From a virus: 64,000 nt of DNA. The notes under the pieces were generated by a model. That model did not search any database, was not told where the DNA came from, and saw nothing but the letters and a program-made list of their open reading frames with translations. Below are positions 1,257 to 49,189 of this stretch, piece after piece (the stretch's first letter is position 1; each line of letters starts with the position of its first letter). Location: positions 81,043-145,042 of IMG/VR virus record IMGVR_UViG_3300042484_001840; one strand, given 5' to 3'. A program made the position numbers and the translations under genes.

Positions 1257-1288
1257 TTATCCACAGGCTGGGGATAACCTGTGGATAA
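1257..1288. promoter_or_regulatory. DnaA-box cluster A (3 boxes)
   Basis: TTATCCACA 1257, TGGGGATAA 1269, TGTGGATAA 1280. Confidence 0.85.
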
Positions 1289-3822: not shown

Positions 3823-4003
3823 CAAGCGGGGGAAACCCTTTAGCCCCGTTGGATATATGCGTGCGTGGAAAGTTTTGACGCTTCTCTTCCGCCACCGTCA
3901 ATAGTAGGGAACACAGGGGCGGGGCTGTCACCCCTAAATAGGGGTGTTCAGGGGGCGTACCTCACGATACGCCCCCTTCGGGTGGCCAAACTCGCCACTC
4001 GCC

Positions 4004-7746: not shown

Positions 7747-8145
7747 TAGTAGTCCTCTCAGTAGTTGTAAATATAAGTATACAGGAGAAGTGTAACAATT
7801 ACAACATTGCATAGTATGACAATTGTCACTATCGGTATTGCGCCTAATTACTTATGAGTATATTATACACGATAGGTGAATGAATGTCAAGTATTTACAC
7901 AAAATAATTTATTATATTTAGTTTTATAAATAATATCTATAATATATAAATGTCTTCCGCCACCGTCAATAGTAGAAGCGCTTAGCCCCGTTCATTTTTT
8001 GGCAAATTTATATCATTTCTACCAATTTCATATCAGTTCGGGTGCGGGGCTGTCAGCCTTCTGAAATACTTTGTAATACAAGGTGATACAGGGAATTACT
8101 GCGTGCGGGGCTAATAGTTTTCTTTCCCGCCAATCAAGTCGCCCC

Positions 8146-8250
8146 TCATTCCATCAAATCTTTAAAATCATCCCAAAACAGAGCGACAATAATTCCCGCA
8201 ACCATTCCAAGCGCCCCAAGTCCAATCAAAAAGTCGTTTAGCAATTCCAT
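8146..8250 (-). CDS. 34-aa single-pass membrane peptide (MELLNDFLIGLGALG...)
   Basis: AAGGAG RBS, ACTACTAC leader, TATAAT at 8290-8285. Confidence 0.7.
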   Translation of the reverse strand: MELLNDFLIGLGALGMVAGIIVALFWDDFKDLME

Positions 8251-8295
8251 AATTTCTCCTTTGTAGTAGTTGGTTACATAGACAATTATACAGGA

Positions 8296-8326
8296 GGGGT
8301 GTGGCAGAGTTTCCCCTGCCACCCCC
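8296..8326 (-). terminator. GC hairpin fused to the downstream -10 (repeat family also at about 8563-8595, 9013-9044, 11293-11322)
   Basis: GGGGTGTGGCAGAG..CTGCCACCCC inverted repeat just after the upstream stop codon. Confidence 0.65.
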
Positions 8327-8332
8327 AAGCGA

Positions 8333-8512
8333 TCAGTAGACCGCTCGCTCTCGGCGTTCCCACTCAATCGCATTGGCGACTGCCTTGGCAATCCCCTTGG
8401 CGGTTTGGCTATGAGTACGACTGGCTCGTTCACCAATTCGCAACCCTCGCTCTAACCCGTACTGGCGGATTAGGTTTTCGTGGATCTCATCCCATAAGAA
8501 TTTGGTATTCAT
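8333..8512 (-). CDS. small helical protein (MNTKFLWDEIHENLIRQYG...)
   Basis: GGGAG RBS; -10 at 8557-8552; paralogue of 6317-6499. Confidence 0.75.
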   Translation of the reverse strand: MNTKFLWDEIHENLIRQYGLERGLRIGERASRTHSQTAKGIAKAVANAIEWERRERAVY

Positions 8513-8600
8513 ATTTTCTCCCTTAGTAGTGGTGACTTCCTTACATATATAAGTATACACAAGGGGTGTGGCAGAGTTCCCTCCGCCACGCCCCCAGCGA

Positions 8601-8966
8601 TCAGTAATCCTCATCCTCATCGTCCTCGTCCTCTTGGCTGAGAAACTCCTCATCGTCCATCCATTCGCCCTGCCCGATGAGACTCACGAAACCTGCGTTG
8701 GGGTTCTCGTGGTTGGTTGTGACTGCGTTGATGAACTTCAGACCACACGACTCGTCCCACCAAACTTTGAGCGTGGTGAGCATTTCCTCAGAAGTGCCCT
8801 CAAAAGTGCGGTCATCGCAGTGAACGCCGTTATAGTTCTCACGGAACCAGCCCGCCTGCTCCTCGTCCATTGCGAGGTAGATTTTGTGGCAACCGTCCCA
8901 AGCGATAAGGAGAGCGCCCTCAAGAGCGTCCTCAACTGGGTCAAATAAATTGTCTAAGGTTTTCAT
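8601..8966 (-). CDS. acidic hypothetical protein (WDGCHKIY motif)
   Basis: ORF, RBS, -10 at 9008-9003. Confidence 0.8.
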   Translation of the reverse strand: MKTLDNLFDPVEDALEGALLIAWDGCHKIYLAMDEEQAGWFRENYNGVHCDDRTFEGTSEEMLTTLKVWWDESCGLKFINAVTTNHENPNAGFVSLIGQGEWMDDEEFLSQEDEDDEDEDY

Positions 8967-9056
8967 AGTTTGTCCCTTTCAGTAGTTGTTGCTTACTTAG
9001 TAATTATACACAAGGGGTGTGGCAGAGTTTCCTCCGCCACCCCCTGACGCTTGAGA

Positions 9057-9272
9057 TCAGATCTCAGCCTCCCACATACGGCAGATCTCCTTGGTGATAT
9101 GGAGACCCTGAACAAGTGCCAAGCCAATGGCTCGCTTTAGTTCGTTGGGCGTTGCCAAGGGGAGGTAGTTGTCAATGTCCTCCCAAGCCTTGAGACCAGC
9201 AAGGATTTCCTCGTAGGTCTTGCTGGCATAAGCCTTGTCATTACTAGTTGGGAACTTGGTTTCGGTAGTCAT
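9057..9272 (-). CDS. hypothetical protein
   Basis: GAGG RBS; promoter 9338-9310. Confidence 0.75.
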   Translation of the reverse strand: MTTETKFPTSNDKAYASKTYEEILAGLKAWEDIDNYLPLATPNELKRAIGLALVQGLHITKEICRMWEAEI

Positions 9273-9612
9273 AATTTGTCCTCTCGGTAGTGGTTTTCCT
9301 TACCTAGTAAGTATACACCTTGGGTGTAGCACTTACACCATTATTCGTGTTACAGAATGGTTACAGATTTATGACGGAAATGTAATGGAGAGCCAAAATG
9401 CCGATATGGGCAATGTGTCACCATTACACGCTAGAACGCCCCCTAAGCGCCTGACCCCCCTCTCCGCCCCTAGCACCCAATCCTGAGCCTGAAACGGCTG
9501 AGAGACGATTTCCACAGATTTATACACAGCCTCTGAGCAGGGGAAATGTGGCAAAACCCCAGCGTGAGGGCACTTTTTGCATAACCCCTGCTAGTGGGCT
9601 TACACACGGTGG

Positions 9613-9908
9613 TTATCCACAGAAGTGACCACTTACCACCAGATTTCACCAGTAGTTATCCACAGGGGTGTGTATAAAGTTGGGGATAAGGTTATCCACA
9701 GGATATCCACAGGGTGTGGATAAAGTAGTTGTACTGTGCAAGTAAGTTATCCACAGGGGGTGTGGATAAAGGTGTGGATAAAGTTTTCCACAGGGTGTGG
9801 ATAAACCTGTGGAAAAGATAGTTGTAGTCTACAAGTAAGTTTTCCACAGGATGGGGATAAAGTTGTGGATAAAGTTATCAACAGGGCTGTGGATAAAGTT
9901 GTGGATAA
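9613..9908. repeat. large DnaA-box array C (about 19 boxes, 11 perfect)
   Basis: Perfect TTATCCACA/TGTGGATAA at 9613, 9656, 9692, 9715, 9747, 9761, 9773, 9796, 9864, 9888, 9900 plus one-mismatch copies. Confidence 0.95.
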
Positions 9909-10072
9909 CTTTTTGCTCTGTAAAAAATTCTCTTCCGCCACCGTCAAAGTTTTAGAAACGAGGGGGCGGGGCTAGTCCCCTACTAACAAGAATTGAAAAA
10001 TCTGAACTTATAAAAAAAAGCATTAGCCCCGTTTGTTTTTTCAAGAAGCATTAGCCCCGTTTGTTTTTTGAG

Positions 10073-10105
10073 TTTTCCACAGGTTTTTCCACAGGCTGTG
10101 GATAA
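10073..10105. promoter_or_regulatory. DnaA-box cluster D (3 boxes)
   Basis: TTTTCCACA 10073, 10085; TGTGGATAA 10097. Confidence 0.8.
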
Positions 10106-10137
10106 GGGGGTAGGGTTTGACCCCCACCCCCACTCAA

Positions 10138-10335
10138 TCACCAAGGGCACTCGTTGTGTCCTTTTCTCATTATCCATCGCGATTTCATTTCGCTGACGAA
10201 TCGGTAGGCAACTTTGTGCGGACTCCATAAGTAAGCGAGTCGCCTGATGCCTGTCATGTCCTCAGCCTCGTCCAATTCGCAATTGGCGGGCATGTAAAGC
10301 GAACCGCTCCACTCTAGTCCTTTGAGCCATTTCAT
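10138..10335 (-). CDS. hypothetical protein (MKWLKGLEW...)
   Basis: AAGGAG RBS; promoter 10397-10369. Confidence 0.75.
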   Translation of the reverse strand: MKWLKGLEWSGSLYMPANCELDEAEDMTGIRRLAYLWSPHKVAYRFVSEMKSRWIMRKGHNECPW

Positions 10336-10513
10336 ATTTTCTCCTTCTAGTAGTTCCTTACATATACAAGTATAGCAGACTTGTGTAACCATTACAACAT
10401 TTATCAACAAATATCTTTGTGACAAAAGACACGCCGTACAATGGTGTAAACTCTACACCCTCATGCTATACTTATGGAGTACGGAAAACCTACTACTAAA
10501 CAAGGGAGACAGT

Positions 10514-10792
10514 ATGAAGTTCATGACCGAAACGCTAGTGACAGACACGCTCTGCTACGAAGTAATTGCCGAGACAGCCAAGACGCTGACAATCAGGTCA
10601 ATGGCACGAGGCGAGCAGGTGTACACCGATGGCGCACCATTGCCAGTAATCGGACTCCGAGCGATTTCTGATCCGAACGGAGACACCAAAGTGGTGAGAC
10701 TCCGTAAAGACGGAACTTACCGCAAGGCTCAGGGATACAACCCCCTGCGGTTCACCGAGACTCCGATCTTCTACACGGACTACAAGTACTGA
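10514..10792 (+). CDS. hypothetical protein (MKFMTET...)
   Basis: GGGAG RBS; promoter GTGTAA(10444)-17-TATACT(10467). Confidence 0.8.
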   Translation: MKFMTETLVTDTLCYEVIAETAKTLTIRSMARGEQVYTDGAPLPVIGLRAISDPNGDTKVVRLRKDGTYRKAQGYNPLRFTETPIFYTDYKY

Positions 10793-10828
10793 GAGATGGG
10801 CGGGGGGCGAAAGCCCCCCCCCCCCCAG

Positions 10829-10850
10829 TTATCCACAGGGCTGTGGACAA
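10829..10850. promoter_or_regulatory. DnaA-box pair E
   Basis: TTATCCACA 10829; TGTGGACAA 10842. Confidence 0.75.
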
Positions 10851-10966
10851 CTTTGCGCGGAAAATCCGTGCGGGGCTATGGGCTTCCCGACGCGCCCGCT
10901 AGCCCCGTTGCTTCAAAATCTGGAGACTCACGGTATGGGCAGAACCCCGCAGGGCTTAGCGCCCCC

Positions 10967-11254
10967 TCAATCGGGGACGCTTGCCCATGCTTCGGCTTCG
11001 GTACTGAACTCGCCAAACTCGGAGACGGTACGAACTTCGGTCAGGCTTACGGCTTGACGGACAGTAAAGCGACGCTCGCCGTCCCAAGCGAAGCCGTTAG
11101 GGTCTTGCTCAGAAGTGACAAAGTAGCCATCGCCGTAGATATCTCCGTGAACCCTTGACGCAAACCAGCGCATAGTGCTATCGGAGAAAAAGTGGTAGCC
11201 AGCGTCTTTACTAGCCTCCACGAACTCACTTAGTGTCATGGTTGAAATACTCAT
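10967..11254 (-). CDS. conserved phage protein (GxHFFSxxTMRWFxSR...FVTSE motif)
   Basis: Recognisable phage motif; AAGGAG RBS. Confidence 0.8.
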   Translation of the reverse strand: MSISTMTLSEFVEASKDAGYHFFSDSTMRWFASRVHGDIYGDGYFVTSEQDPNGFAWDGERRFTVRQAVSLTEVRTVSEFGEFSTEAEAWASVPD

Positions 11255-11331
11255 AGTTATCTCCTTAGTAGTTGATGGATAAATTATACCGAGGGGGTGT
11301 GGCTCAGTTCCCCAAGCCACACCGAAGCCCC

Positions 11332-11499
11332 TCAGAACCGAGGTAGTTGGCTTAGGACATAATCCTCGGCACGGGTGATGTACTTAGCCGTAACAGCGCC
11401 TCGTGCTTTTCTATAAGCGAGGTCATAGATACGGTCAGCAACTTCAAAGCCATGCTTACGGATAAGAGCCTCGTAAAGTTCATTTTCTGAGAATGTCAT
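11332..11499 (-). CDS. small helical protein (MTFSENELYEALIRKHG...)
   Basis: AAGGAG RBS; -10 at 11536-11531. Confidence 0.75.
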   Translation of the reverse strand: MTFSENELYEALIRKHGFEVADRIYDLAYRKARGAVTAKYITRAEDYVLSQLPRF

Positions 11500-11595
11500 T
11501 ATTTTCTCCTTAGTAGTGGTGACAGATATAAGTATACACCCGCCGAGTGTAGAAACTACAACCATACGGTGTGTCTCTTGTCACACTACCTAACC

Positions 11596-11730
11596 GAACA
11601 GGTGTTCGCACGGAGACACCGAACAAGTGTTCCCCGAACGGGTGTTCGTACCGAACAAGTGTTCGCTTGATAAAAATACGCACCGACGCATAAAAATACA
11701 CCGAACAGGTGTTCTACGAACAGGTGTTCG
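11596..11730. promoter_or_regulatory. tandem array of six LexA/SOS boxes (CGAAC-N4-GTTC(G))
   Basis: CGAACaggtGTTCG 11596, CGAACaagtGTTCc 11620, CGAACgggtGTTCG 11635, CGAACaagtGTTCG 11652, CGAACaggtGTTCt 11702, CGAACaggtGTTCG 11717. Confidence 0.85.
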
Positions 11731-11816
11731 CTTGACAAATGTAGCCACATTACGGAGGGAATGTGGACACAATAAAAGCACAGAACTAGAACCGATAGCC
11801 CCGCTAGACTAAAGAT

Positions 11817-13724
11817 ATGAATGGGCAACTAATACTAGGAACGGACACGCTTGTTGCCGTGTTCCCGTACGATAAGGCGCAAGTTGCGCGGATCAGAACC
11901 ATACGCGGGGCTGTATGGGACAACGCATCTAAAACATGGCGGATACCCCTTACTCAATTCTCCAAGGCAACAGAATTGGCGTTGGAACTCGGCTGGTGGA
12001 TTAGCCCCGAAGTAGCAATGCTGAACATACCCAGTGAACCCGTGGACATGATGACGGTGAACAGCAAAACCGTGAGGCTTTCGTTCTCGTTTGACCCAGT
12101 AAAAGTGCGTGCGGTTAAGCGGATACCAGGCATAACTTGGGACAAAAAGACGGCATCGTGGGAAGCCCCGCTCTCGTCACTATCGGAATGTGCTGACTGG
12201 GCGAAGCAGTTTGACATGGAAGTAAGCGAAGATACGCAGACGCAAATATCAGAAATAACCGAAACCAGGTCAAAACTGATTGAGCAGTCAAGGCAAACCG
12301 ATGCTGACCTTGAAGTGGCGGGACTACCACTGCTTCCGTACCAAAGAGCGGGCGTGAAGTACGCTGCTGAGGCACGCAGATGCTTCATTGCTGACGACAT
12401 GGGACTTGGTAAAACACTCCAAGCAATCGCAACTCTTGAGTATGTTATGGATAGTTACCCCGCAGTTGTTGTCTGCCCACCCACGCTGGTACTGAACTGG
12501 AAGAACGAGTACAACAAGTGGCTACCAGGTAGAAATGTTGTCACGGTGAAGAACCGAAGCGAATTCCCAGACGGGGCTTATGATGTTGTCGTTGTTGGTT
12601 ACTCAAACATCAACGCATGGGCGAACAAACTCCAAAAGCACCGAAGTTATGTGTTTGACGAGTCGCATTACTGCAAAAGTGCTGATGCGCAGCGCACGAA
12701 GGCTGCCATCAAGATGGCGAAGTCGGCACCGAAAGAAGGAATTGTTCTTTGTTTGACTGGTACGCCCGTAACCAACCGCCCCGCTGAATACGCCCCGCAG
12801 TTGGACATGCTTGGAAAACTTTCTGATTTTGGTGGCAAATGGGGCTTTTACCGACGATATTGCGCGGCTTTCCGAGACAGATTTGGGCAATGGAACATCT
12901 CAGGCAACTCCAACTTGGAAGAACTCAACGACAGACTCCGAGGAAACTGTTATATCCGAAGAACTAAGGACCAGGTACTGGAAGAACTCCCACCCGTGCG
13001 TCACAACACGATCCTGATTGAAGGAACTGATGCGGGGCTGAAGGAGTATCGCAAGGCGGAAAACGACATCGTAAAATATCTAATGGAGCGTGCACGGCAA
13101 ATCGCTGAAGAACTTGGTGAATCACCGAACTCCGCTGCTGTGCGAGCAAAAATGAGGGCAGAACGGAACGAACATTTGATTCGCATCGGCGTTCTTCGGA
13201 AGTTAGCCGCTAAAGCGAAGATGCCCGCTGTTATTGAATGGGTTGATGGGCGCATTGAAGCGGGGCAAAAGGTGGTTATCGCCGCTCACCACCGTGAAAT
13301 CGTTGATGAACTTGCTCAGAAGTATGGGAACATAAAGATTCAGGGAGGCATGGATGTCAATGATGTGGAAGCAAACAAGAAGATGTTTCAAGAGAAAAGT
13401 GTCACAGAAAGCCCCGTTATCGTTCTTTCCATCCAAGCAGCGAAAACAGGTCACACGCTGACCGCTTCTCAAGATGTTCTCTTCGTGGAACTTCCATGGA
13501 CACCGAGCGATGTGGATCAAACTTACTCAAGATGCCACCGACTGGGACAAAAGGGCAGTGTAACAGCAACTTATCTGCTTTGTCAAGGAACTGTTGATGA
13601 AAAAATCTACGATGTCATTGAGCAGAAGCGTGGAGTTGTGAACGCTGCGACTGAAGGAACCGAAGTGAGCGGGGCTGGTGGAGAATTGTTTGACCATTAC
13701 CTCCAACTGTCAATGAAATACTGA
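11817..13724 (+). CDS. SNF2-family (SMARCAL1/HARP-like) helicase
   Basis: ADDMGLGKT, DESH, LTGTP, QTYSRCHRLGQ motifs; two N-terminal HARP-like repeats (IxGxxWDxxxxxW). Confidence 0.92.
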   Translation: MNGQLILGTDTLVAVFPYDKAQVARIRTIRGAVWDNASKTWRIPLTQFSKATELALELGWWISPEVAMLNIPSEPVDMMTVNSKTVRLSFSFDPVKVRAVKRIPGITWDKKTASWEAPLSSLSECADWAKQFDMEVSEDTQTQISEITETRSKLIEQSRQTDADLEVAGLPLLPYQRAGVKYAAEARRCFIADDMGLGKTLQAIATLEYVMDSYPAVVVCPPTLVLNWKNEYNKWLPGRNVVTVKNRSEFPDGAYDVVVVGYSNINAWANKLQKHRSYVFDESHYCKSADAQRTKAAIKMAKSAPKEGIVLCLTGTPVTNRPAEYAPQLDMLGKLSDFGGKWGFYRRYCAAFRDRFGQWNISGNSNLEELNDRLRGNCYIRRTKDQVLEELPPVRHNTILIEGTDAGLKEYRKAENDIVKYLMERARQIAEELGESPNSAAVRAKMRAERNEHLIRIGVLRKLAAKAKMPAVIEWVDGRIEAGQKVVIAAHHREIVDELAQKYGNIKIQGGMDVNDVEANKKMFQEKSVTESPVIVLSIQAAKTGHTLTASQDVLFVELPWTPSDVDQTYSRCHRLGQKGSVTATYLLCQGTVDEKIYDVIEQKRGVVNAATEGTEVSGAGGELFDHYLQLSMKY

Positions 13725-20580: not shown

Positions 20581-20677
20581 TCGGATTTTTTTGTGACGGA
20601 CTTTTTGCTACTGCCGTTTTTTCATTTCGTGCTTCGGATTTTTTTGTGAAAACTTTTCGCTACTGCTATTTTTTCAG
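20581..20677. repeat. imperfect 44-bp direct repeat (53-bp period)
   Basis: TCGGATTTTTTTGTGA...ACTTTT.GCTACTGC..TTTTTCA at 20581 and 20634. Confidence 0.8.
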
Positions 20678-20703: not shown

Positions 20704-20736
20704 TTATCCACAGGCTGTTGATAAACCTGTGGATAA
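20704..20736. promoter_or_regulatory. DnaA-box cluster F (3 boxes)
   Basis: TTATCCACA 20704, TGTTGATAA 20716, TGTGGATAA 20728. Confidence 0.85.
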
Positions 20737-20739
20737 CTC

Positions 20740-21048
20740 TCATTGCTGACTCGTGGAAACTTTTGTTCTGTTCCGTAACCCAATCATTGCGGACAAATAA
20801 AATCCTGCCGCGTGACGCTCCATCTCTGTTTCTCCGCCCCACACGCCGTACTCGTGGTTTTTCCTGCCGTACTCTCGGCACTCTGCGGATACAGGGCATT
20901 GCCGACATATAGCGACCGCTTGTGCTTCACGCTTTACCCGTCTCTCAGGTCGCTCGGCAACCTTAGGGAAGAATAGGTCTAACTTGCCACTACAAATTCC
21001 CAACTTCTGCCATTCGGTATCTAGAGTTTGAGTGTCGTTGTCGGTCAT
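20740..21048 (-). CDS. whiB: WhiB-family Fe-S transcription factor
   Basis: C...LFF...CxxCPV...C, GVWGG.TE.ER. Confidence 0.92.
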   Translation of the reverse strand: MTDNDTQTLDTEWQKLGICSGKLDLFFPKVAERPERRVKREAQAVAICRQCPVSAECREYGRKNHEYGVWGGETEMERHAAGFYLSAMIGLRNRTKVSTSQQ

Positions 21049-22600: not shown

Positions 22601-22751
22601 GCTTTGTCCTTTAGTAGTAGTGACAAGGTAATCATACACAACTATCAAACAAAAAGCAACCTTTATCAAAAGAAATATTTATTATAGTTATGTGACATAA
22701 TCAACAACTATCATAACAATAATGATTACATATATAGCAATTACATATCAG

Positions 22752-22926
22752 TTATACACAACCTGTGGATAAGGTGTGGATAACTTTGTACACAGGCTGT
22801 GGGTAACGCTGTGGATAACGATGAGTGCTGTGGATAATGCTGTGTATAACCTGTGTATAACCTGTGGATAAAGCGAGGCATCAACTGTGGATAACTAGCA
22901 CCATCTGTGGACAAAGATGTGGATAA
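22752..22926. repeat. large DnaA-box array G (about 13 boxes, mostly co-oriented) next to an AT-rich tract
   Basis: TGTGGATAA 22764, 22775, 22810, 22829, 22863, 22886, 22918; TGTGTATAA 22841, 22852; TTATACACA 22752. Confidence 0.93.
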
Positions 22927-29980: not shown

Positions 29981-30611
29981 AAACTGTTTCCTCATCGTCG
30001 TCTATATCTGCTGTCTGCGCTTCAATTTCCGCAAGGGAAGGCAAAGCCCTAACATTTTCTCCTAGAATTTGCTTAACCGTATCAGATGGAAGTACTCCAG
30101 ATAATCCCATAAGTTCAAGAAGTGCTCGCGCCTCTGTCTCGGGGTTAAATTTATTGATTTCTGCTGGTCCAGCATTGGAAGTACCAGCAAGAATAGCCCG
30201 TGGCAAACTATCTATTGTCTCCACTGTCAGGTTGACGGTCTGTTGCTCCATGCCTAGTAGTTTTGCTCGCCTGTCCATAATTCCAAGTACCTGTTGTATT
30301 GCCTTCAAATCTGGCTCTACGGTAATTTCAGTACCATCATCTAGCGTGGTTTTACGGTGCTGGGTTAGCGGCCAGATTGCTTGTTGCAATGCGTCTAGTC
30401 GCTCTAATTCCATGCGAAGCACTTCGGGATATGCCATTAGTGCTTCTTTATTCATTTTTTCCAGTTGACGCTTAATAGCAGCATTAACTGATTGGGTCGT
30501 AATATTGAAACGCCGACCAATTTCCTGCGGAGAAACACCTGCTTGACGCATCTTGAAAATACGCAAATCGCGTTCAGCCAAAAATTCTTTTGTCAAGCCT
30601 TTGCTACTCAT
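29973..30611 (-). CDS. HTH protein, terminase small subunit-like
   Basis: N-terminal HTH; LERLDAL...W...AIxxVLxIMDRRAKLLG. Confidence 0.65.
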   Translation of the reverse strand: MSSKGLTKEFLAERDLRIFKMRQAGVSPQEIGRRFNITTQSVNAAIKRQLEKMNKEALMAYPEVLRMELERLDALQQAIWPLTQHRKTTLDDGTEITVEPDLKAIQQVLGIMDRRAKLLGMEQQTVNLTVETIDSLPRAILAGTSNAGPAEINKFNPETEARALLELMGLSGVLPSDTVKQILGENVRALPSLAEIEAQTADIDDDEETVYE

Positions 30612-32323
30612 CAGTCACCTTCTAGGAATTCTAGCACTTCAAACGGAAATACCTTCCCACGCTTCATTTTAGTCGGCCATCTACGCTGGTCACGGGCACC
30701 TCGGAAGTGTCTGACCTCGTAAACATAGCCATCAACTGATGTTGGATCTGGCTGTAAGGACAAGCCAAATTCAGGCCAGCGTGACCATACGGCGGAACCA
30801 AATGGTCGTAGATCTCTTGATGCCATGGCGCTACCAAGCGGAGCATGATGCTCAAACCAAAAGGCGCACTTAAAATACTCACGAAGAGTGTCAAAGTATT
30901 TAGCAATCTCAATTGCTACCGATTCGCTTGTTCTTCCGCCTGGGTCAATAAATGACTTATAAATAGGACCAAGGAATACAATGTCAGGCTTAACTATTTC
31001 AAGTTTTTCCTCAATCATCATCCTGTCCTGCATTCTCATCAAGTCAATACCGTCAGGCTTGATAAGTAGATGGGCATCAGGAACATGCTTATTGCCGTAA
31101 TGCAATGTCGCATTATAGATATTTCGCGATGTTCGCCTAATGATTCTTTCTGGGTTTTCCAAGTCAATCATGAGAGTACGCATAGGTGGAATTGCCTCAA
31201 AGGTAAAAGGATGCAGACCAGAGGAAACGCAAAGTGCCACCTGTCGTGCAAGCATTGTTTTTCCAACACCCTCGGCAGCAACAACCATAACTCGCTCGCC
31301 ACGCTCTAGGAGACCAGGTATAACCCAATCGTATGTATCCGTCTCTGACTCATTAACGAATTCTCCCCACTCAACTAATCGTCCCTCGTTCTTTACTGCC
31401 ACCACCTGAGGGTCTAATTCAAGAAGAATTCTTTCAGCACGCTGGATTTTTGCTTGATGGGATAAATTATCTTTCTCAAATAATTTGTGAAGTTTGTCTA
31501 AGACTGGCGCATATGGATCGTGAGCCTCAGGCTCATCTACCATTTGATCAAAATCACGCAAGTCCTCAAGTTTCCCGCCACCCTTAAGAAGATCAGTTAC
31601 ATCTTTTACCTTGTCGGCAATTTTAACTGAGACTTGACACTCTGCTTGGATTAATCTATTTGAAACATCAATAGCGTGCTTTTTACCAACTTCATCGTTG
31701 TCAGCAACTATGACGATCTTTGCACCAGCAAGTGTCTCGGTGTGAATGTCTAGCCATTTACCAGCACCGCCCGGCATTGTTGTTGCAGGTATTCCCATTT
31801 TAATAAGGGTATTTGAGTCCTTTTCACCCTCAACTACCCAAATTGTTTCGTCTGCATCACGAGCAGCACAAATCATTGGCAAGTTATATAGGACTTTTTC
31901 AATCCCATCAAGATTCATTACCCATTCGCCACTTACTGGGTCTACACGGCGTTGACGGAATGTTTTTTTACCATCCTCATCAACAAATCTTTGTTTTTGA
32001 AATAGTAATTCACCCAAAGCATCACGATAATCGTAAGTTTCTACGAGGGTTAATCTTTGTTTCTTTTTTGGAATATCTTTCGGTGGCATTAGATCAGAAA
32101 CTGTCATTCCAACCGACCCACAAATAGTTTCCACATCACACGGAATTCCGCGGTGACATGTAACTAGGACGCGACCATCAGTACCTTGACCAATTGAAAG
32201 GGATGGGTTTTTATCATCATTTCTACACGGGCATTGTGCTGACCAATTTTGACCGTTTTGTTTTACGCCATTAAGTTTTGATAGAAATTTCTCTACCTCT
32301 GATGAAGTATTTTCCCTTGCCAT
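30611..32323 (-). CDS. DNA primase-helicase (Zn finger + TOPRIM + AAA_25/RepA-like)
   Basis: CPC..D..PSLS, VEGEKD, DNDxxG, AEGVGKT Walker A. Confidence 0.9.
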   Translation of the reverse strand: MARENTSSEVEKFLSKLNGVKQNGQNWSAQCPCRNDDKNPSLSIGQGTDGRVLVTCHRGIPCDVETICGSVGMTVSDLMPPKDIPKKKQRLTLVETYDYRDALGELLFQKQRFVDEDGKKTFRQRRVDPVSGEWVMNLDGIEKVLYNLPMICAARDADETIWVVEGEKDSNTLIKMGIPATTMPGGAGKWLDIHTETLAGAKIVIVADNDEVGKKHAIDVSNRLIQAECQVSVKIADKVKDVTDLLKGGGKLEDLRDFDQMVDEPEAHDPYAPVLDKLHKLFEKDNLSHQAKIQRAERILLELDPQVVAVKNEGRLVEWGEFVNESETDTYDWVIPGLLERGERVMVVAAEGVGKTMLARQVALCVSSGLHPFTFEAIPPMRTLMIDLENPERIIRRTSRNIYNATLHYGNKHVPDAHLLIKPDGIDLMRMQDRMMIEEKLEIVKPDIVFLGPIYKSFIDPGGRTSESVAIEIAKYFDTLREYFKCAFWFEHHAPLGSAMASRDLRPFGSAVWSRWPEFGLSLQPDPTSVDGYVYEVRHFRGARDQRRWPTKMKRGKVFPFEVLEFLEGD

Positions 32324-40789: not shown

Positions 40790-41736
40790 AAAATCTCCTT
40801 AATCATTTTTTCAATATCATTAATAAATAAGTTTGCATATTTATTCTTCAAGTCAATAGCATTATTGCTAAATGTATCGTAACTATTAACAATATCTGCA
40901 AAGTTTACATTTGGATATCTTGGGACACTTTCATCAATGTGCCTAAAAAGTGCACAGTCGCTCAATAACATTGGTTTTCCAGATGCAATCAAATAGTCAG
41001 CAGAAGAAGATATCCCAGCATTGCTTGGTGGGAGTTCATAAAATAGTGCATTGATATCATTTGAGGCAAGCATTTCAACAATTTCTTCTTCACTTACATA
41101 ATCACTAGTGTGGTTAAAGCGAATATTGGGTTTTGTAATTTCCCTAAGGATTGATTGAATAATCTCATCTGTATAATCCCCAGTAAAAGTACCAACTGTC
41201 ATGTGTAGGTTAAAAACGGCATTATCAAAATGTTTGTTTATTTCTCGCATAATGATATGAAAATTCTTATGGGGTAAACCAAAGCCAAAACTGCCTATTC
41301 GTATTTCGCCATCACTTAGTTGGGTGTCTACGCTTTTACCCGCGTGAATTGTTCTACCAACTGGGAATATACGATTATCCGATGTTTTTAGTGTTGGATC
41401 ATTGCATATCATGTAGTCAAACAAGCCAGAATAACCATTCATTATTGCGGTGATGCTTGTTGGATCAAATAGGTGCTGTACTACGACTCTCTTGGCGGGG
41501 AAACCAGATATTGAGTCTTTTGATACCCATGGCATAACAAGTTGCATATAATTAAAGAAAACAATAGACGGCTGATGTATTGCGTAGATAGAGGCGTACT
41601 CGTCTGCTGAATTACACTCAGCGTAAACAGCATCCAAGAGTGAACTCTTCGCTAACTGATTAAACTGCCGTTTTCCAAAGTCATAAACACCACAGCGAGA
41701 ACCGAGACCGTGGTTTATATAAAGGACTTTTATCAT
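40786..41736 (-). CDS. GT-B (GT4-like) glycosyltransferase
   Basis: CGVYD, FGFGLPHKN, SS...ASGKP..SD. Confidence 0.75.
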   Translation of the reverse strand: MIKVLYINHGLGSRCGVYDFGKRQFNQLAKSSLLDAVYAECNSADEYASIYAIHQPSIVFFNYMQLVMPWVSKDSISGFPAKRVVVQHLFDPTSITAIMNGYSGLFDYMICNDPTLKTSDNRIFPVGRTIHAGKSVDTQLSDGEIRIGSFGFGLPHKNFHIIMREINKHFDNAVFNLHMTVGTFTGDYTDEIIQSILREITKPNIRFNHTSDYVSEEEIVEMLASNDINALFYELPPSNAGISSSADYLIASGKPMLLSDCALFRHIDESVPRYPNVNFADIVNSYDTFSNNAIDLKNKYANLFINDIEKMIKEIL

Positions 41737-42959
41737 GAACCAACTATATCAAACACTGGACAAGGGAAAACAAACTTTCCGCCACCATCAAGGTATGACT
41801 TTTCGCGGGTAATGAATTCAGCGCGGAAGTGCCAAGGGAGTACAAGGAGATAGTCTGGTTTTGCTTCTCGCATTTCATCTTCTGATTTGATCGGGATATT
41901 TGTGCCGATAGTGCGGAGACCAAACTTATACGGAGAGCGTTCTGCAATTGCGTCTACCATTGTTTCGTCAATGCCAAAGTATTGCAACAATGTATTGCCC
42001 TTAGTTGAGGCACCGTAACCCCAAACAGTCTTACCTTCTTCTTTTGCCTTCTTAAGAAAAGCCAAAGTTTGCGCTTTAAGGTTTTCAATCTTTACAAAGA
42101 AATCATTCCATACTTCTGGAGTATTAACTTTTGTTTCGCGCTCATGAGCAAGAATAGAATCAACTCTAAATTTACATACATCACGATGAGGCTGTGTGCC
42201 AAATTTTGTCTTATCAGCAACATCTTTCATCGCGTAAATTCGGAAACTTCCGCCGTTTACATCATTGAGTTGACAGTCCATAATTTTAAAACCGCATGAT
42301 TCAAATAGTGTTTTGATTGATTCAAGGCTGTAATAATAAACATGTTCGTGGCAAATATTATCAAATGCGACTTGAGCCAACATTAATGGCGTATAACTCA
42401 TCTGAAGAATAAAAATTCCATCATCGTCCAAGACTGAATATGCATCATTCAAGAATGGACGCGGATTGTCTAAATCATAGAACATAGCAATACATGTAAT
42501 AATGTCCGCTTTTGGAGCATTTGAAGGGTATGACTTGGCAGAAAAATAATCACGGATAACTACATCGCCGTGCTTTTTTGCTTCTTCCGTAAAAGACTCA
42601 TCAGCAGGGTCAATGCCGATTTTGTAGATATTCTGTGGGATTTTTTCAAGAAGTGTTCCGTCATTACAGGCAATATCAAGCCATGTTGAAATATTCTTTT
42701 GCCCCTTAACTTGAAGTGCAGAAGCAACAATTCCAGCAAGTTCATCTTTCATAGTTTGGTTAGTGCCAGACCGATACCAATAACGACCATACATAAATGA
42801 AGGATCAGCAGTTTGCTTAAGGCGGGCACAGTTGAGTTCTGAGTCCCACTCCAACTGAAGATCAACTGGCTCGCATCGCGGTTCTTCACCATTGGCAAGA
42901 AAGTCAGACAGAAATAGATTTCCAAGATTGAACAAATCCACAATAAACTCCAAAGTCAA
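41733..42959 (-). CDS. NDP-hexose C-methyltransferase-like protein
   Basis: DIACNDGTLL, FDNICHEH, YGASTKGNTLL, LPWHF. Confidence 0.88.
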   Translation of the reverse strand: MTLEFIVDLFNLGNLFLSDFLANGEEPRCEPVDLQLEWDSELNCARLKQTADPSFMYGRYWYRSGTNQTMKDELAGIVASALQVKGQKNISTWLDIACNDGTLLEKIPQNIYKIGIDPADESFTEEAKKHGDVVIRDYFSAKSYPSNAPKADIITCIAMFYDLDNPRPFLNDAYSVLDDDGIFILQMSYTPLMLAQVAFDNICHEHVYYYSLESIKTLFESCGFKIMDCQLNDVNGGSFRIYAMKDVADKTKFGTQPHRDVCKFRVDSILAHERETKVNTPEVWNDFFVKIENLKAQTLAFLKKAKEEGKTVWGYGASTKGNTLLQYFGIDETMVDAIAERSPYKFGLRTIGTNIPIKSEDEMREAKPDYLLVLPWHFRAEFITREKSYLDGGGKFVFPCPVFDIVGS

Positions 42960-46979: not shown

Positions 46980-47730
46980 CGGAGTTTTTTCTATTTTTGC
47001 GATAACGCTGTCCAACGGAACCATCTAATGAAATGGTTGGTCCATCCGACATTCCGCGGGCGTAAACATATTTGTAGTTTTCCTCGTCAGCAAATTTAAT
47101 TTCTTGAATATCACCAGAGCGTTTGAAAGGAATGACATGAGCAAGAGGTGTTCCGTAGCGAATAACAAAAGGCTCATCACCCTTTAAGTTCAAAACAACA
47201 TTCATGTGGTGGTAATAATCCGTATGAACAATCGCTGGGACTACATCGTAATTATTGTTTGGTTCGTAGGGAATCCCACTAATAATTGATGACCAACCCT
47301 TGGCGGTAATGAATGAATAAGGATTCACCAATTTTGGATACGGTGACTCTTCCTGCTTCCTATTACGAGTCATTGGACATTCGCCAGTTGTTGACATTGG
47401 GAATGGTTGACTTTCAAAAGGGACTAAAGAAAAAGGCATTTGCCCAATCTCTACTTCCCAACCACCAAGGTCAGGTCGTGGGTTGAAGGAAAAGTCTGAC
47501 CACGCAGGGATAATATATCCAAGATTTAAATAGTCTTGAACCCCAGCGCACTTGCGAATTCCATCTTTTGGAGAAATCTTGAACCATGTAGGTAGCGTTT
47601 TGGCGCTAGTGGCATATGGCTTTGCGTCCTCAAGCAGACGATTATCCATTGGGATAATTAGAGTCTGTCCTTCTTTTACGCTTTTGCGCATAGATGAATA
47701 AACATTTCGTGGCTTAGTTGTAAATTTCAT
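46972..47730 (-). CDS. DUF6065-like beta-clip protein
   Basis: IRKC...GYIIP.W.D, NP...T.KGWS, GTPLAHVIPFKR. Confidence 0.7.
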   Translation of the reverse strand: MKFTTKPRNVYSSMRKSVKEGQTLIIPMDNRLLEDAKPYATSAKTLPTWFKISPKDGIRKCAGVQDYLNLGYIIPAWSDFSFNPRPDLGGWEVEIGQMPFSLVPFESQPFPMSTTGECPMTRNRKQEESPYPKLVNPYSFITAKGWSSIISGIPYEPNNNYDVVPAIVHTDYYHHMNVVLNLKGDEPFVIRYGTPLAHVIPFKRSGDIQEIKFADEENYKYVYARGMSDGPTISLDGSVGQRYRKNRKNSDD

Positions 47731-49189
47731 TGAGTGCCTCCGCGTGGTCTACTAGTTCTTCTGTGAGTCTAGTATTTCTTACATTAGAAATTTCTTTAAG
47801 CGCCGAGTCAATTTTGTCAAAGTTCTGCATCATTCTACCAATAGGCTCGGTACTAATAACATTTTGTCCTTGTGCAACATGAAGTAAATGCGCTATTTGG
47901 AACATTTCACCGTGATTATTTGATATATGGTCACGAGGTAGTGTCGTTTCTTGCCATAAATCTAAAAGTTCTTGAAGTGAGTCGTTGACTGGCATTTCTG
48001 CTGTGGCGCGCCAGAATTCTGTATCTCGCCTGTCTGACATATAGTGAAGCCTAATCATAATAAGGATGTTGTCCATCATTATATTGAAATTCTTGTTTAC
48101 TGTTTTTTGGGATGCCCAATGACCATGTTTATATGAACCTAAAAATGGCATTATTTGGTCCATCTGTTGAATTGTTGAGCCGATTGATGTTGCTTCCAGT
48201 GGTTCAACAAATGAACTTGCCAGACCGACCGTAAGGCAGTTCTTGACCCATGGTGTTTTAAGATGACCAGGGTCAAACTTGAATGTTCGTGCAGGACTAA
48301 TATTTATCCCTAATGTTTCCGAGGCTTCTTTGATGGCATCTTCTTCGCTAAGGAAGGCGGATGAATACACATAGCCATTTCCCCGTCGTTCCTGTGTAGG
48401 AATTTCCCACATCCAGCCTGACGAAAGTGCACGCGCCCGTGTGTATGCTCTAATTTTGCCATTTTCATCTTTTTCTGTTGGAAAAGCAAAAGCAGAATCT
48501 GCTAACAAATACTTACTAAATGATTCCCATTCCGTATTCCCTAATGCTTTGCTGAGAATTCTTTGAAATCCAGTAGCATCTATCCAAAAATTAGCAATTA
48601 CTTTTTTCCCTGACTTTAGGTCAACTGATTCAATATGACCCTGTTCGGGGTTTAGGTTTACTTTTTCAATAAAACCCTCAATGAAACCAATATGCCTGCG
48701 ACCAGCAACATTTCTGAAATACTCGTTTAATTTAAATGTATCAAAGTGATATTGGTTAGTTGCATTATGCATATGCTTTTTACTAATTTTATCTGTAAAT
48801 AAACCAACACTTCCAGTATTATTTGTTAACAATTTACCGTCAGCAATAAGTTTGCTATACACGGCATAAAGTCTCCACATAAAAATTTCTTCATCACCAG
48901 AAACGCTATGAATATAATCAGGGAATACCGTTGACCAATTCTCAAACCTGATTCCGTATTTGTGAGTTGCTTTTGTTTCTGCCATCATCTCAAGAAGCGG
49001 AATATCACATCGGCTCATCATTGTTCGCCAATGCTCAGTACTGCCTTCTCCAACGCCTACAATGCCCACTTCGCTTGAGGAAATAATAGTTATTTTTGCT
49101 TGCGGGAAAGCAGAGCGCAACATTATTGAAGATATTAGACCTGCTGTACCAGAACCACAAATACCAAATGACAAAGGTGTTTCATTCAT
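47714..49189 (-). CDS. tryptophan-halogenase-like flavin-dependent enzyme
   Basis: GSGTAG, GVGEGS, catalytic Lys in ATHKYGI, WMWEIP, FVEPLEATSI. Confidence 0.9.
   Translation of the reverse strand: MNETPLSFGICGSGTAGLISSIMLRSAFPQAKITIISSSEVGIVGVGEGSTEHWRTMMSRCDIPLLEMMAETKATHKYGIRFENWSTVFPDYIHSVSGDEEIFMWRLYAVYSKLIADGKLLTNNTGSVGLFTDKISKKHMHNATNQYHFDTFKLNEYFRNVAGRRHIGFIEGFIEKVNLNPEQGHIESVDLKSGKKVIANFWIDATGFQRILSKALGNTEWESFSKYLLADSAFAFPTEKDENGKIRAYTRARALSSGWMWEIPTQERRGNGYVYSSAFLSEEDAIKEASETLGINISPARTFKFDPGHLKTPWVKNCLTVGLASSFVEPLEATSIGSTIQQMDQIMPFLGSYKHGHWASQKTVNKNFNIMMDNILIMIRLHYMSDRRDTEFWRATAEMPVNDSLQELLDLWQETTLPRDHISNNHGEMFQIAHLLHVAQGQNVISTEPIGRMMQNFDKIDSALKEISNVRNTRLTEELVDHAEALNEIYN

Follow-up and report, generated by a model that had tools for sequence, protein, structure and literature searches.

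A tandem array of DnaA boxes in a putative actinophage genome, a possible trap for the host initiator

The window, that is, the whole stretch of 64,000 nucleotides that we analysed, contains a gene-free gap of 865 bp (9273–10137) between two small leftward genes, 9057–9272 and 10138–10335, as judged from the list of open reading frames (ORFs) and the sequence. The original prediction had placed a gap of about 800 bp here and, within it, 11 perfect and about 8 single-mismatch DnaA boxes in both orientations; an exact recount between 9613 and 9908 gave 11 and 8. The perfect TTATCCACA boxes are at 9613, 9656, 9692, 9715, 9747, 9761, 9773, 9796, 9864, 9888 and 9900, and the one-mismatch boxes at 9669, 9681, 9703, 9784, 9808, 9840, 9852 and 9875, which makes 19 boxes in 296 bp. 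Their spacing is 11–14 bp inside units and 32 bp between blocks. Across the window, we counted 57 boxes with at most one mismatch, compared with 18.6 ± 4.4 in shuffled sequences, and 0 of 100 shuffles reached 57. Perfect boxes numbered 27 in the window, all between 1257 and 22926 and none in 23–64 kb, and 31 on the whole contig.

The cluster begins with a solitary perfect box on the plus strand (9613–9621). The main array (9654–9908) was recognized by Tandem Repeats Finder as a 92-bp unit repeated 2.8 times (score 315, 80% matches). The 92-bp unit consists of two triplets, arranged as box> <box <box, and a spacer. Six triplets (18 boxes) are located at 9656, 9692 (inverted), 9747, 9784, 9840 and 9875, with a first gap of 3–5 bp and a second gap of 2–3 bp. 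An additional inverted triplet on the minus strand (10073–10105) is 88% complementary to the unit 9784–9816. Seven pairs of boxes (9669/9681, 9692/9703, 9761/9773, 9796/9808, 9852/9864, 9888/9900 and 10073/10085) have the same orientation and a gap of 2 or 3 bp, which is the geometry of the double DnaA box. The spacer of each 92-bp unit forms the centre of a 41–45-bp palindrome: the 41-bp palindrome at 9715–9755 covers two diverging boxes and the spacer TTGTAC-N-GTGCAA, and the 45-bp palindrome at 9806–9850 marks the second block boundary. The single-stranded fold of 9640–9915 has a predicted energy of −51 kcal/mol (z = −9.6 relative to shuffled sequences). This organization, a 92-bp repeat built from six triplets, is new here.

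The same array locus is carried by a sister phage (G005) on a separate contig with 92–97% identity. Just two differences separate the phages at the array: a unit of 22 bp with two boxes, and a spacer unit of 21 bp. Because the sister phage has the same locus with these unit differences, both an assembly artefact and a coding function are ruled out for the array; the ORFs that run through it are considered non-coding because the 22-bp and 21-bp indels fall across them. Between these near-identical phages, the copy number of the array shifts by whole units. A protein-coding or RNA gene in the gap was rejected on the basis of these indels, the lack of an Rfam hit and the lack of a tRNA. According to the original prediction, its reading would fall if the segment proved to be a chimeric piece of host oriC flanked by dnaA and dnaN. 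This objection fails: dnaA and dnaN are absent from the contig, the same locus is present on the sister contig, and the array is a self-generated, internal 92-bp tandem repeat. The search of the contig for dnaA and dnaN (Pfam in six frames, and tblastn with 51 DnaA and 39 DnaN sequences) gave a best E-value of 0.09, and the six-frame Pfam search detected no DnaA domain, domain IV included. In phages that share the SNF2 helicase at 55–59% identity, neither box enrichment nor arrays were found.

On the left of the array, the gene 9057–9272 is preceded by a candidate promoter and 5'-UTR cassette (9292–9347, minus strand; GGTGTAA-N17-TATACT type, read from the sequence), and a 56-nt inverted copy of this cassette stands before gene 10463 (10435–10490). 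Early genes share the cassette G/TTGTAA-N17-TATACT, followed by CTACTACTAA ahead of the ribosome site, and ACTACTAA occurs 16 times in the window between 1 and 26 kb. On the right, the 65-aa gene at 10138–10335 (minus strand) has an AAGGAG ribosome site and a predicted promoter, TTGTAA-N17-TATACT at 10397–10369, which is directed at the array. The 17-mer TCTTCCGCCACCGTCAA lies at 9931–9947 on the plus strand, with copies at 3885 and 7953 and a variant at 1162; it had 7 matches, compared with 0.12 expected, always on the plus strand and usually with GCGGGGCT within about 30 bp after it. The 17-mer at 9931 was rejected as a promoter, because a good −10 element is present only at the 7953 copy. 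No DNA in the genome is less stable than the segment 7872–7970 (86–95% AT), located 1.65 kb to the left of the array, which carries perfect TTGACA-N17-TATAAT promoters as well as one TCTTCCGCCACCGTCAA copy. The gap also contains a short tract of 80% AT (9980–10019; dG −42.2, among the least stable 0.6% of 40-mers) and two 27-bp direct repeats with a AAGCATTAGCCCCGTTTGTTTTTT core on the plus strand (10015–10069). T-rich direct repeats adjoin DnaA triplets, namely the two 27-bp copies just mentioned and two copies of about 52 bp at 20583–20677. The motif CTTTTTGCT(A)CTG recurs next to terminal boxes. The octamers CGGGGCTA and TAGCCCCG are highly over-represented, with more than 20 copies in early-region spacers (window 1–24000), often ahead of a T-run.

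Boxes are also clustered elsewhere in the window. A dispersed triplet is found at 1257–1288 (plus strand). Another (2449) is accompanied by one extra box, the two together spanning 2438–2481 on the plus strand between two convergent terminators; in phage G002, a triplet is likewise found downstream of a DUF3846 homologue, the arrangement seen at 2438. The triplet at 20704–20736 (plus strand) is directly 3' of a WhiB-like gene, and its minus strand reads as a hairpin followed by a T-run. A further box cluster is at 10829. The second array (array 2; 22752–22926, minus strand) begins with a triplet and contains 13 boxes, nearly all co-oriented. On the canonical unwinding side it adjoins a stretch of 81% AT (22664–22743); only one 80-mer of the genome is less stable. 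The promoter scan gave a candidate leftward promoter, TTGATA-N17-GATAGT at 22669–22641, with this stretch upstream of it; array 2 ends 83 bp upstream of the promoter. In all, the phage has at least 11 triplets. The original prediction for this locus named neither the flanking triplet at 10073–10105 nor the clusters at 1257, 2438, 10829, 20704 and 22752–22926.

The window is the final 64 kb of a 145,042-bp IMG/VR contig of an uncultured virus, the completeness of which is rated 98%. The first 11,341 bp of the contig recur at its end with 42 mismatches (genome 1–11341 = 133702–145042), which leaves a unique genome length of 133,701 bp (~133.7 kb). This overlap suggests that two variants were assembled in circular or permuted form, and it does not look like a clean terminal repeat. 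Judged from the sequence, the host is an actinobacterium, because the phage has a WhiB-family gene (20740–21048), a capsid protein whose nearest counterparts, at ~50% identity, are in Brevibacterium and Gordonia phages, a primase-helicase with its nearest kin in Arthrobacter, Gordonia and Microbacterium phages, and six tandem SOS (LexA-type) boxes, CGAAC-N4-GTTCG, upstream of the SNF2 helicase gene (11596–11730). The primase-helicase gene of the phage, which the original prediction had mentioned, is indeed present (30611–32323; Toprim and AAA_25). The phage also encodes the SNF2 helicase, a class II ribonucleotide reductase and a thymidylate synthase. No DNA polymerase of family A, B or C was detected on the whole contig of this 134-kb phage, and neither an integrase nor a serine recombinase was found. 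A temperate or plasmid lifestyle was rejected for want of the latter two, although ParB_N proteins are present. The late genes include a tryptophan halogenase and a C-methyltransferase (window 47714–49189 and 41733–42959). A search of cultured-phage DNA with window 8000–12000 as the query gave no match.

The array is very probably bound by host DnaA, to judge from its boxes, and since the contig lacks a DnaA domain, the partner must be the DnaA of the host. Double DnaA boxes with a 2–3-bp gap are needed by E. coli DnaA in vivo, 1 bp more abolishes binding, and the whole E. coli chromosome has 32 perfect boxes (PMC11317965). The exact triplet was found at no fewer than 120 bacterial loci, 80 of which we examined; dnaA lay within 8 kb of the triplet in 50 of the 80 and dnaN in 39. 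In Actinomycetota the order is triplet, dnaA, oriC, with the triplet ~2.3 kb from an array of 17–20 boxes. One perfect triplet at a single locus was present in 23 of 401 sampled Actinomycetota genomes, and the spacers in these 23 genomes, GGC/GCC and ACC/AGT/AAC, have the same letters as in the phage. The outer flanks AAAG...CTTT are likewise common to host and viral triplets. Conservation across phyla was seen for a triplet upstream of dnaA that resembles the DARS core (Actinomycetota chromosomes L152, L132, L084 and L160). The consensus boxes, the tandem double boxes and the chromosomal match strongly support the reading of the boxes as DnaA sites. The 80 chromosomal loci had a median of 7 and a maximum of 16 boxes, compared with 19 in 296 bp in the phage; the density of the array is above all 80, a value that only the densest among 69 viral loci reach. 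The original prediction had likened this density to that of actinobacterial oriC, and it is in fact similar to that of Rubrobacter-type oriC. Rubrobacter-type oriC arrays have a fixed spacing pattern (12, 21, 11, 17, 17, 12, 12, 22, 12).

As for the role of the bound protein, we tentatively favour the reading that the array is a high-capacity trap for host DnaA, acting in trans. This reading is based on the number of boxes, which exceeds that of the 80 chromosomal loci, their consensus grade, the quick change of unit copies, the lack of conservation in distant relatives and the missing unwinding elements. Several consensus boxes outside an origin, as in titrating clusters, are present (11 perfect boxes here, 31 on the contig); precedents are datA, the B. 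subtilis DBCs and a Streptomyces cluster (PMC3245932). The phage may have built a docking platform by amplifying a three-box module in tandem; in this module one box is opposed to two tandem boxes 2–3 bp apart, and actinobacterial chromosomes keep a single copy of it, upstream of dnaA. We infer that an array could bind ~18–22 DnaA molecules cooperatively, and a genome ~50. Because the usual route cannot open DNA at the array, the main effect is proposed to be in trans: the phage would soak up DnaA, increasingly as it replicates, and this capture would hold back new host initiations and relieve DnaA-repressed host genes. The host replisome and nucleotides would then be freed for a phage without its own DNA polymerase gene. 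We also consider it possible, with more doubt than confidence, that the array is a DNA-only device for host takeover, in which a multimerized module of the dnaA-promoter/DARS type would sequester DnaA or change the nucleotide bound to it; it would shut down or derail host initiation without a phage protein, be tuned by the gain and loss of units, and recur in many unrelated phages. One observation speaks against the trap: a multicopy DnaA-box cluster in B. subtilis did not act like a simple sink.

A second counterargument points to control in cis, which we consider rather doubtful. The original prediction considered neither promoter control nor the DARS-core layout, which are both viable alternatives. 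Under control in cis, DnaA on the triplets and arrays would be a transcription factor or roadblock at early promoters, coupling early genes to the replication state of the host or, through dilution of DnaA, to phage copy number. Of the six dispersed triplets in phage G004, five are ~7 bp upstream of the −35 element of TTGACA-N17-TATAAT promoters; these promoter-abutting triplets, together with the position of array 2 upstream of its candidate early promoter, point to cis control and against the trap. The main array also lies between the promoters at 10397 and 9347, and DnaA is a known regulator via double boxes (PMC11317965). The chromosomal module is upstream of dnaA, a position at which E. 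coli DnaA boxes autoregulate (PMC3245932). However, 19 boxes far exceed the needs of an operator, the nearest downstream promoter is 266 bp from the main array, and the triplet at 2438, between its two convergent terminators, has no promoter nearby.

Replication in cis appears unlikely. DnaA on the arrays would help to open DNA or to load the helicase or primosome, possibly via the box-bearing palindromes or hairpins, and array 2 or both arrays would be the origin. The orientation of the basal unwinding system was calibrated on the oriC of Bacillus and Jeotgalibacillus, where trios are followed by a GC spacer and then by TGTGGATA boxes. DnaA-trios were defined as at least three trios (NAN, TAG-like) 0–16 bp 5' of a TGTGGATAA-type box (PMC8287927). 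No TAG-like run adjoined the main array; the sole run of four NAN trios, CAG TAC AAC TAC, is part of the spacer palindrome, at a distance of 13 nt from box 9703, and is not TAG-like. An unwinding element was not found on the proper side of the main array either; the only AT-rich candidate is the 40-bp tract, towards which both neighbouring boxes point their TTA ends. The prediction that the flanks are not markedly AT-rich largely held; the exception is this tract at 9980–10019, which is unremarkable at 60–80 bp and on the wrong side of both boxes. Cumulative GC skew showed no switch at the array and followed gene direction; because the skew tracks transcription, it is uninformative as an origin marker. 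No Rep or initiator gene adjoins the array, and the flanking ORFs had no family hit. Among oriC features, the main array has the box cluster and lacks the trios, the unwinding element and the linkage to dnaA and dnaN. The suggestion of an oriC mimic is thus weakened for the main array, which is without DnaA-trios, a properly placed unwinding element or a skew switch.

Array 2 differs in that it has an AT-rich, unwinding-element-like feature on the canonical side. A replication role, especially for array 2, is conceivable because of this unstable DNA on the correct side, the absence of iterons or repeats next to the primase-helicase gene (20 kb from the main array) and the absence of a polymerase. 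A phage without a polymerase or a recognized initiator might start replication via DnaA, which is a third point against the trap. The strong single-stranded fold of the main array, the promoter at 10397 that reads towards it and the oriC-like box density are consistent with such a role. Against it, an AT-rich flank on the unwinding side occurred in 12 of 25 orientation-biased viral arrays, no more commonly than by chance, and is not a consistent feature of them. Two large arrays and at least five dispersed triplets, the phage's own helicase-primase and the absence of arrays from the relatives that share the SNF2 helicase also argue against replication in cis. Taken as a whole, the main array looks more like an initiator trap or dock than like a replication start.

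It is improbable that the triplets act in the manner of DARS, stripping ADP from DnaA and regenerating ATP-DnaA, with host over-initiation or a DnaA-dependent phage process as the outcome. The triplets have the layout of the DARS cores, whose effect is reactivation of DnaA and not its capture, and this is a further objection to the trap. In the E. coli K-12 sequence, the DARS1 core reads TTATCCACT-N5-TGTGGATAA-N3-TGTGTATTA and the DARS2 core TTATTCACC-N5-TGTGGATAG-N3-TGTGAAGAA; box I is opposed to boxes II and III (PMC5742627), as in seven local triplets. One of these seven (9747–9781) has the exact 5-bp/3-bp spacing. The other six, however, are spaced 3–4/2–3. DARS activity is known from E. 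coli only, where DARS2 requires sites for IHF and Fis; Actinomycetota have no known DARS, and the chromosomal counterpart of the triplet sits at the dnaA promoter. Very improbable indeed is a role of the sites in binding a phage-encoded protein, or in a T5-like injection stop or membrane tether, instead of in DnaA-dependent replication or regulation: many small early ORFs have no assigned family, the T5 iss has paired boxes 3 bp apart in inverted repeats (10.1101/866236) and T5-like phages match the tandem pair, but the motif, its variants, the spacers and the flanks equal the chromosomal DnaA module, DnaA domain IV is absent from the contig, the T5 injection-stop model is itself a proposal, and the physical genome ends are not readable from contig ends that are an 11.3-kb overlap with 42 mismatches.

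In this lytic-type actinophage, perfect boxes are about as numerous as in the entire E. coli chromosome (31 vs 32), and they are arranged as copies of the module upstream of host dnaA. Chromosomal DnaA-box clusters are known as origins, as sinks (datA and the DBCs) and as reactivators (DARS), and plasmids, P1 and T5 have one to eight helper DnaA boxes. If non-coding DNA by itself traps or reprograms DnaA, this would be a new class of host takeover and would provide a natural tool to manipulate initiation in Actinomycetota. For chromosome biology, a testable lead is the three-box layout that DARS cores have in common with sites upstream of dnaA in different phyla. A bench test is possible because cultured Streptomyces phages carry a single triplet.

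Among known systems, the actinobacterial triplet upstream of dnaA, with the dnaA-dnaN oriC array, has the same three-box layout, 12-bp pitch, GGC/GCC and ACC/AGT spacers and AAAG/CTTT flanks. In contrast to the actinobacterial chromosome, the phage has its many triplets instead of one, arranges them in a 92-bp tandem repeat, and is without dnaA/dnaN neighbours, trios or a proper unwinding element. The datA locus, the B. subtilis DBCs and the Streptomyces cluster are likewise non-origin clusters of consensus boxes that could lower free DnaA, and datA, with 5 boxes and an IHF site, promotes ATP hydrolysis (PMC3245932, PMC5742627). These loci are chromosomal and self-regulatory, whereas the phage array is viral and 4–10 times denser. 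Compared with the DARS cores, most phage units are 1–2 bp tighter and multimerized, with no IHF or Fis region evident.

Among viruses, 69 IMG/VR stretches, whose GC content ranges from 26% to 67%, contain the exact triplet, several of them with arrays of 12–26 boxes. Five IMG/VR contigs with such arrays are without dnaA, and the other viral arrays are mostly surrounded by small genes of unknown function, with no replication genes. In 14 viral contigs (most with a GC content of 54–58%; including L008, L009, L015, L018, L034, L035, L038 and L039), a perfect triplet is ~0.5 kb upstream of the large terminase gene, unlike the early-region context here. Cultured phages with the module include Streptomyces Stanwilliamsviridae, T5-like, Lactococcus 949-like and large Microbacterium phages; no cultured-phage match covered 80% or more of a 166-bp array query. 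The Streptomyces phage Comrade (Stanwilliamsviridae) has the same triplet in a 1.46-kb gene-free gap among small early genes, but phages of this type have one triplet and no array and are not closely related to this phage. The closest published phage case is the T5 iss, where box pairs 3 bp apart are also phage-borne and lie in inverted repeats, in untranslated DNA among early genes (10.1101/866236); box pairs within inverted repeats are found here in the palindromes 9715–9755 and 9806–9850. T5 has 8 boxes, located in the terminal repeat, compared with 19 here, and their proposed role is that membrane DnaA stops injection.
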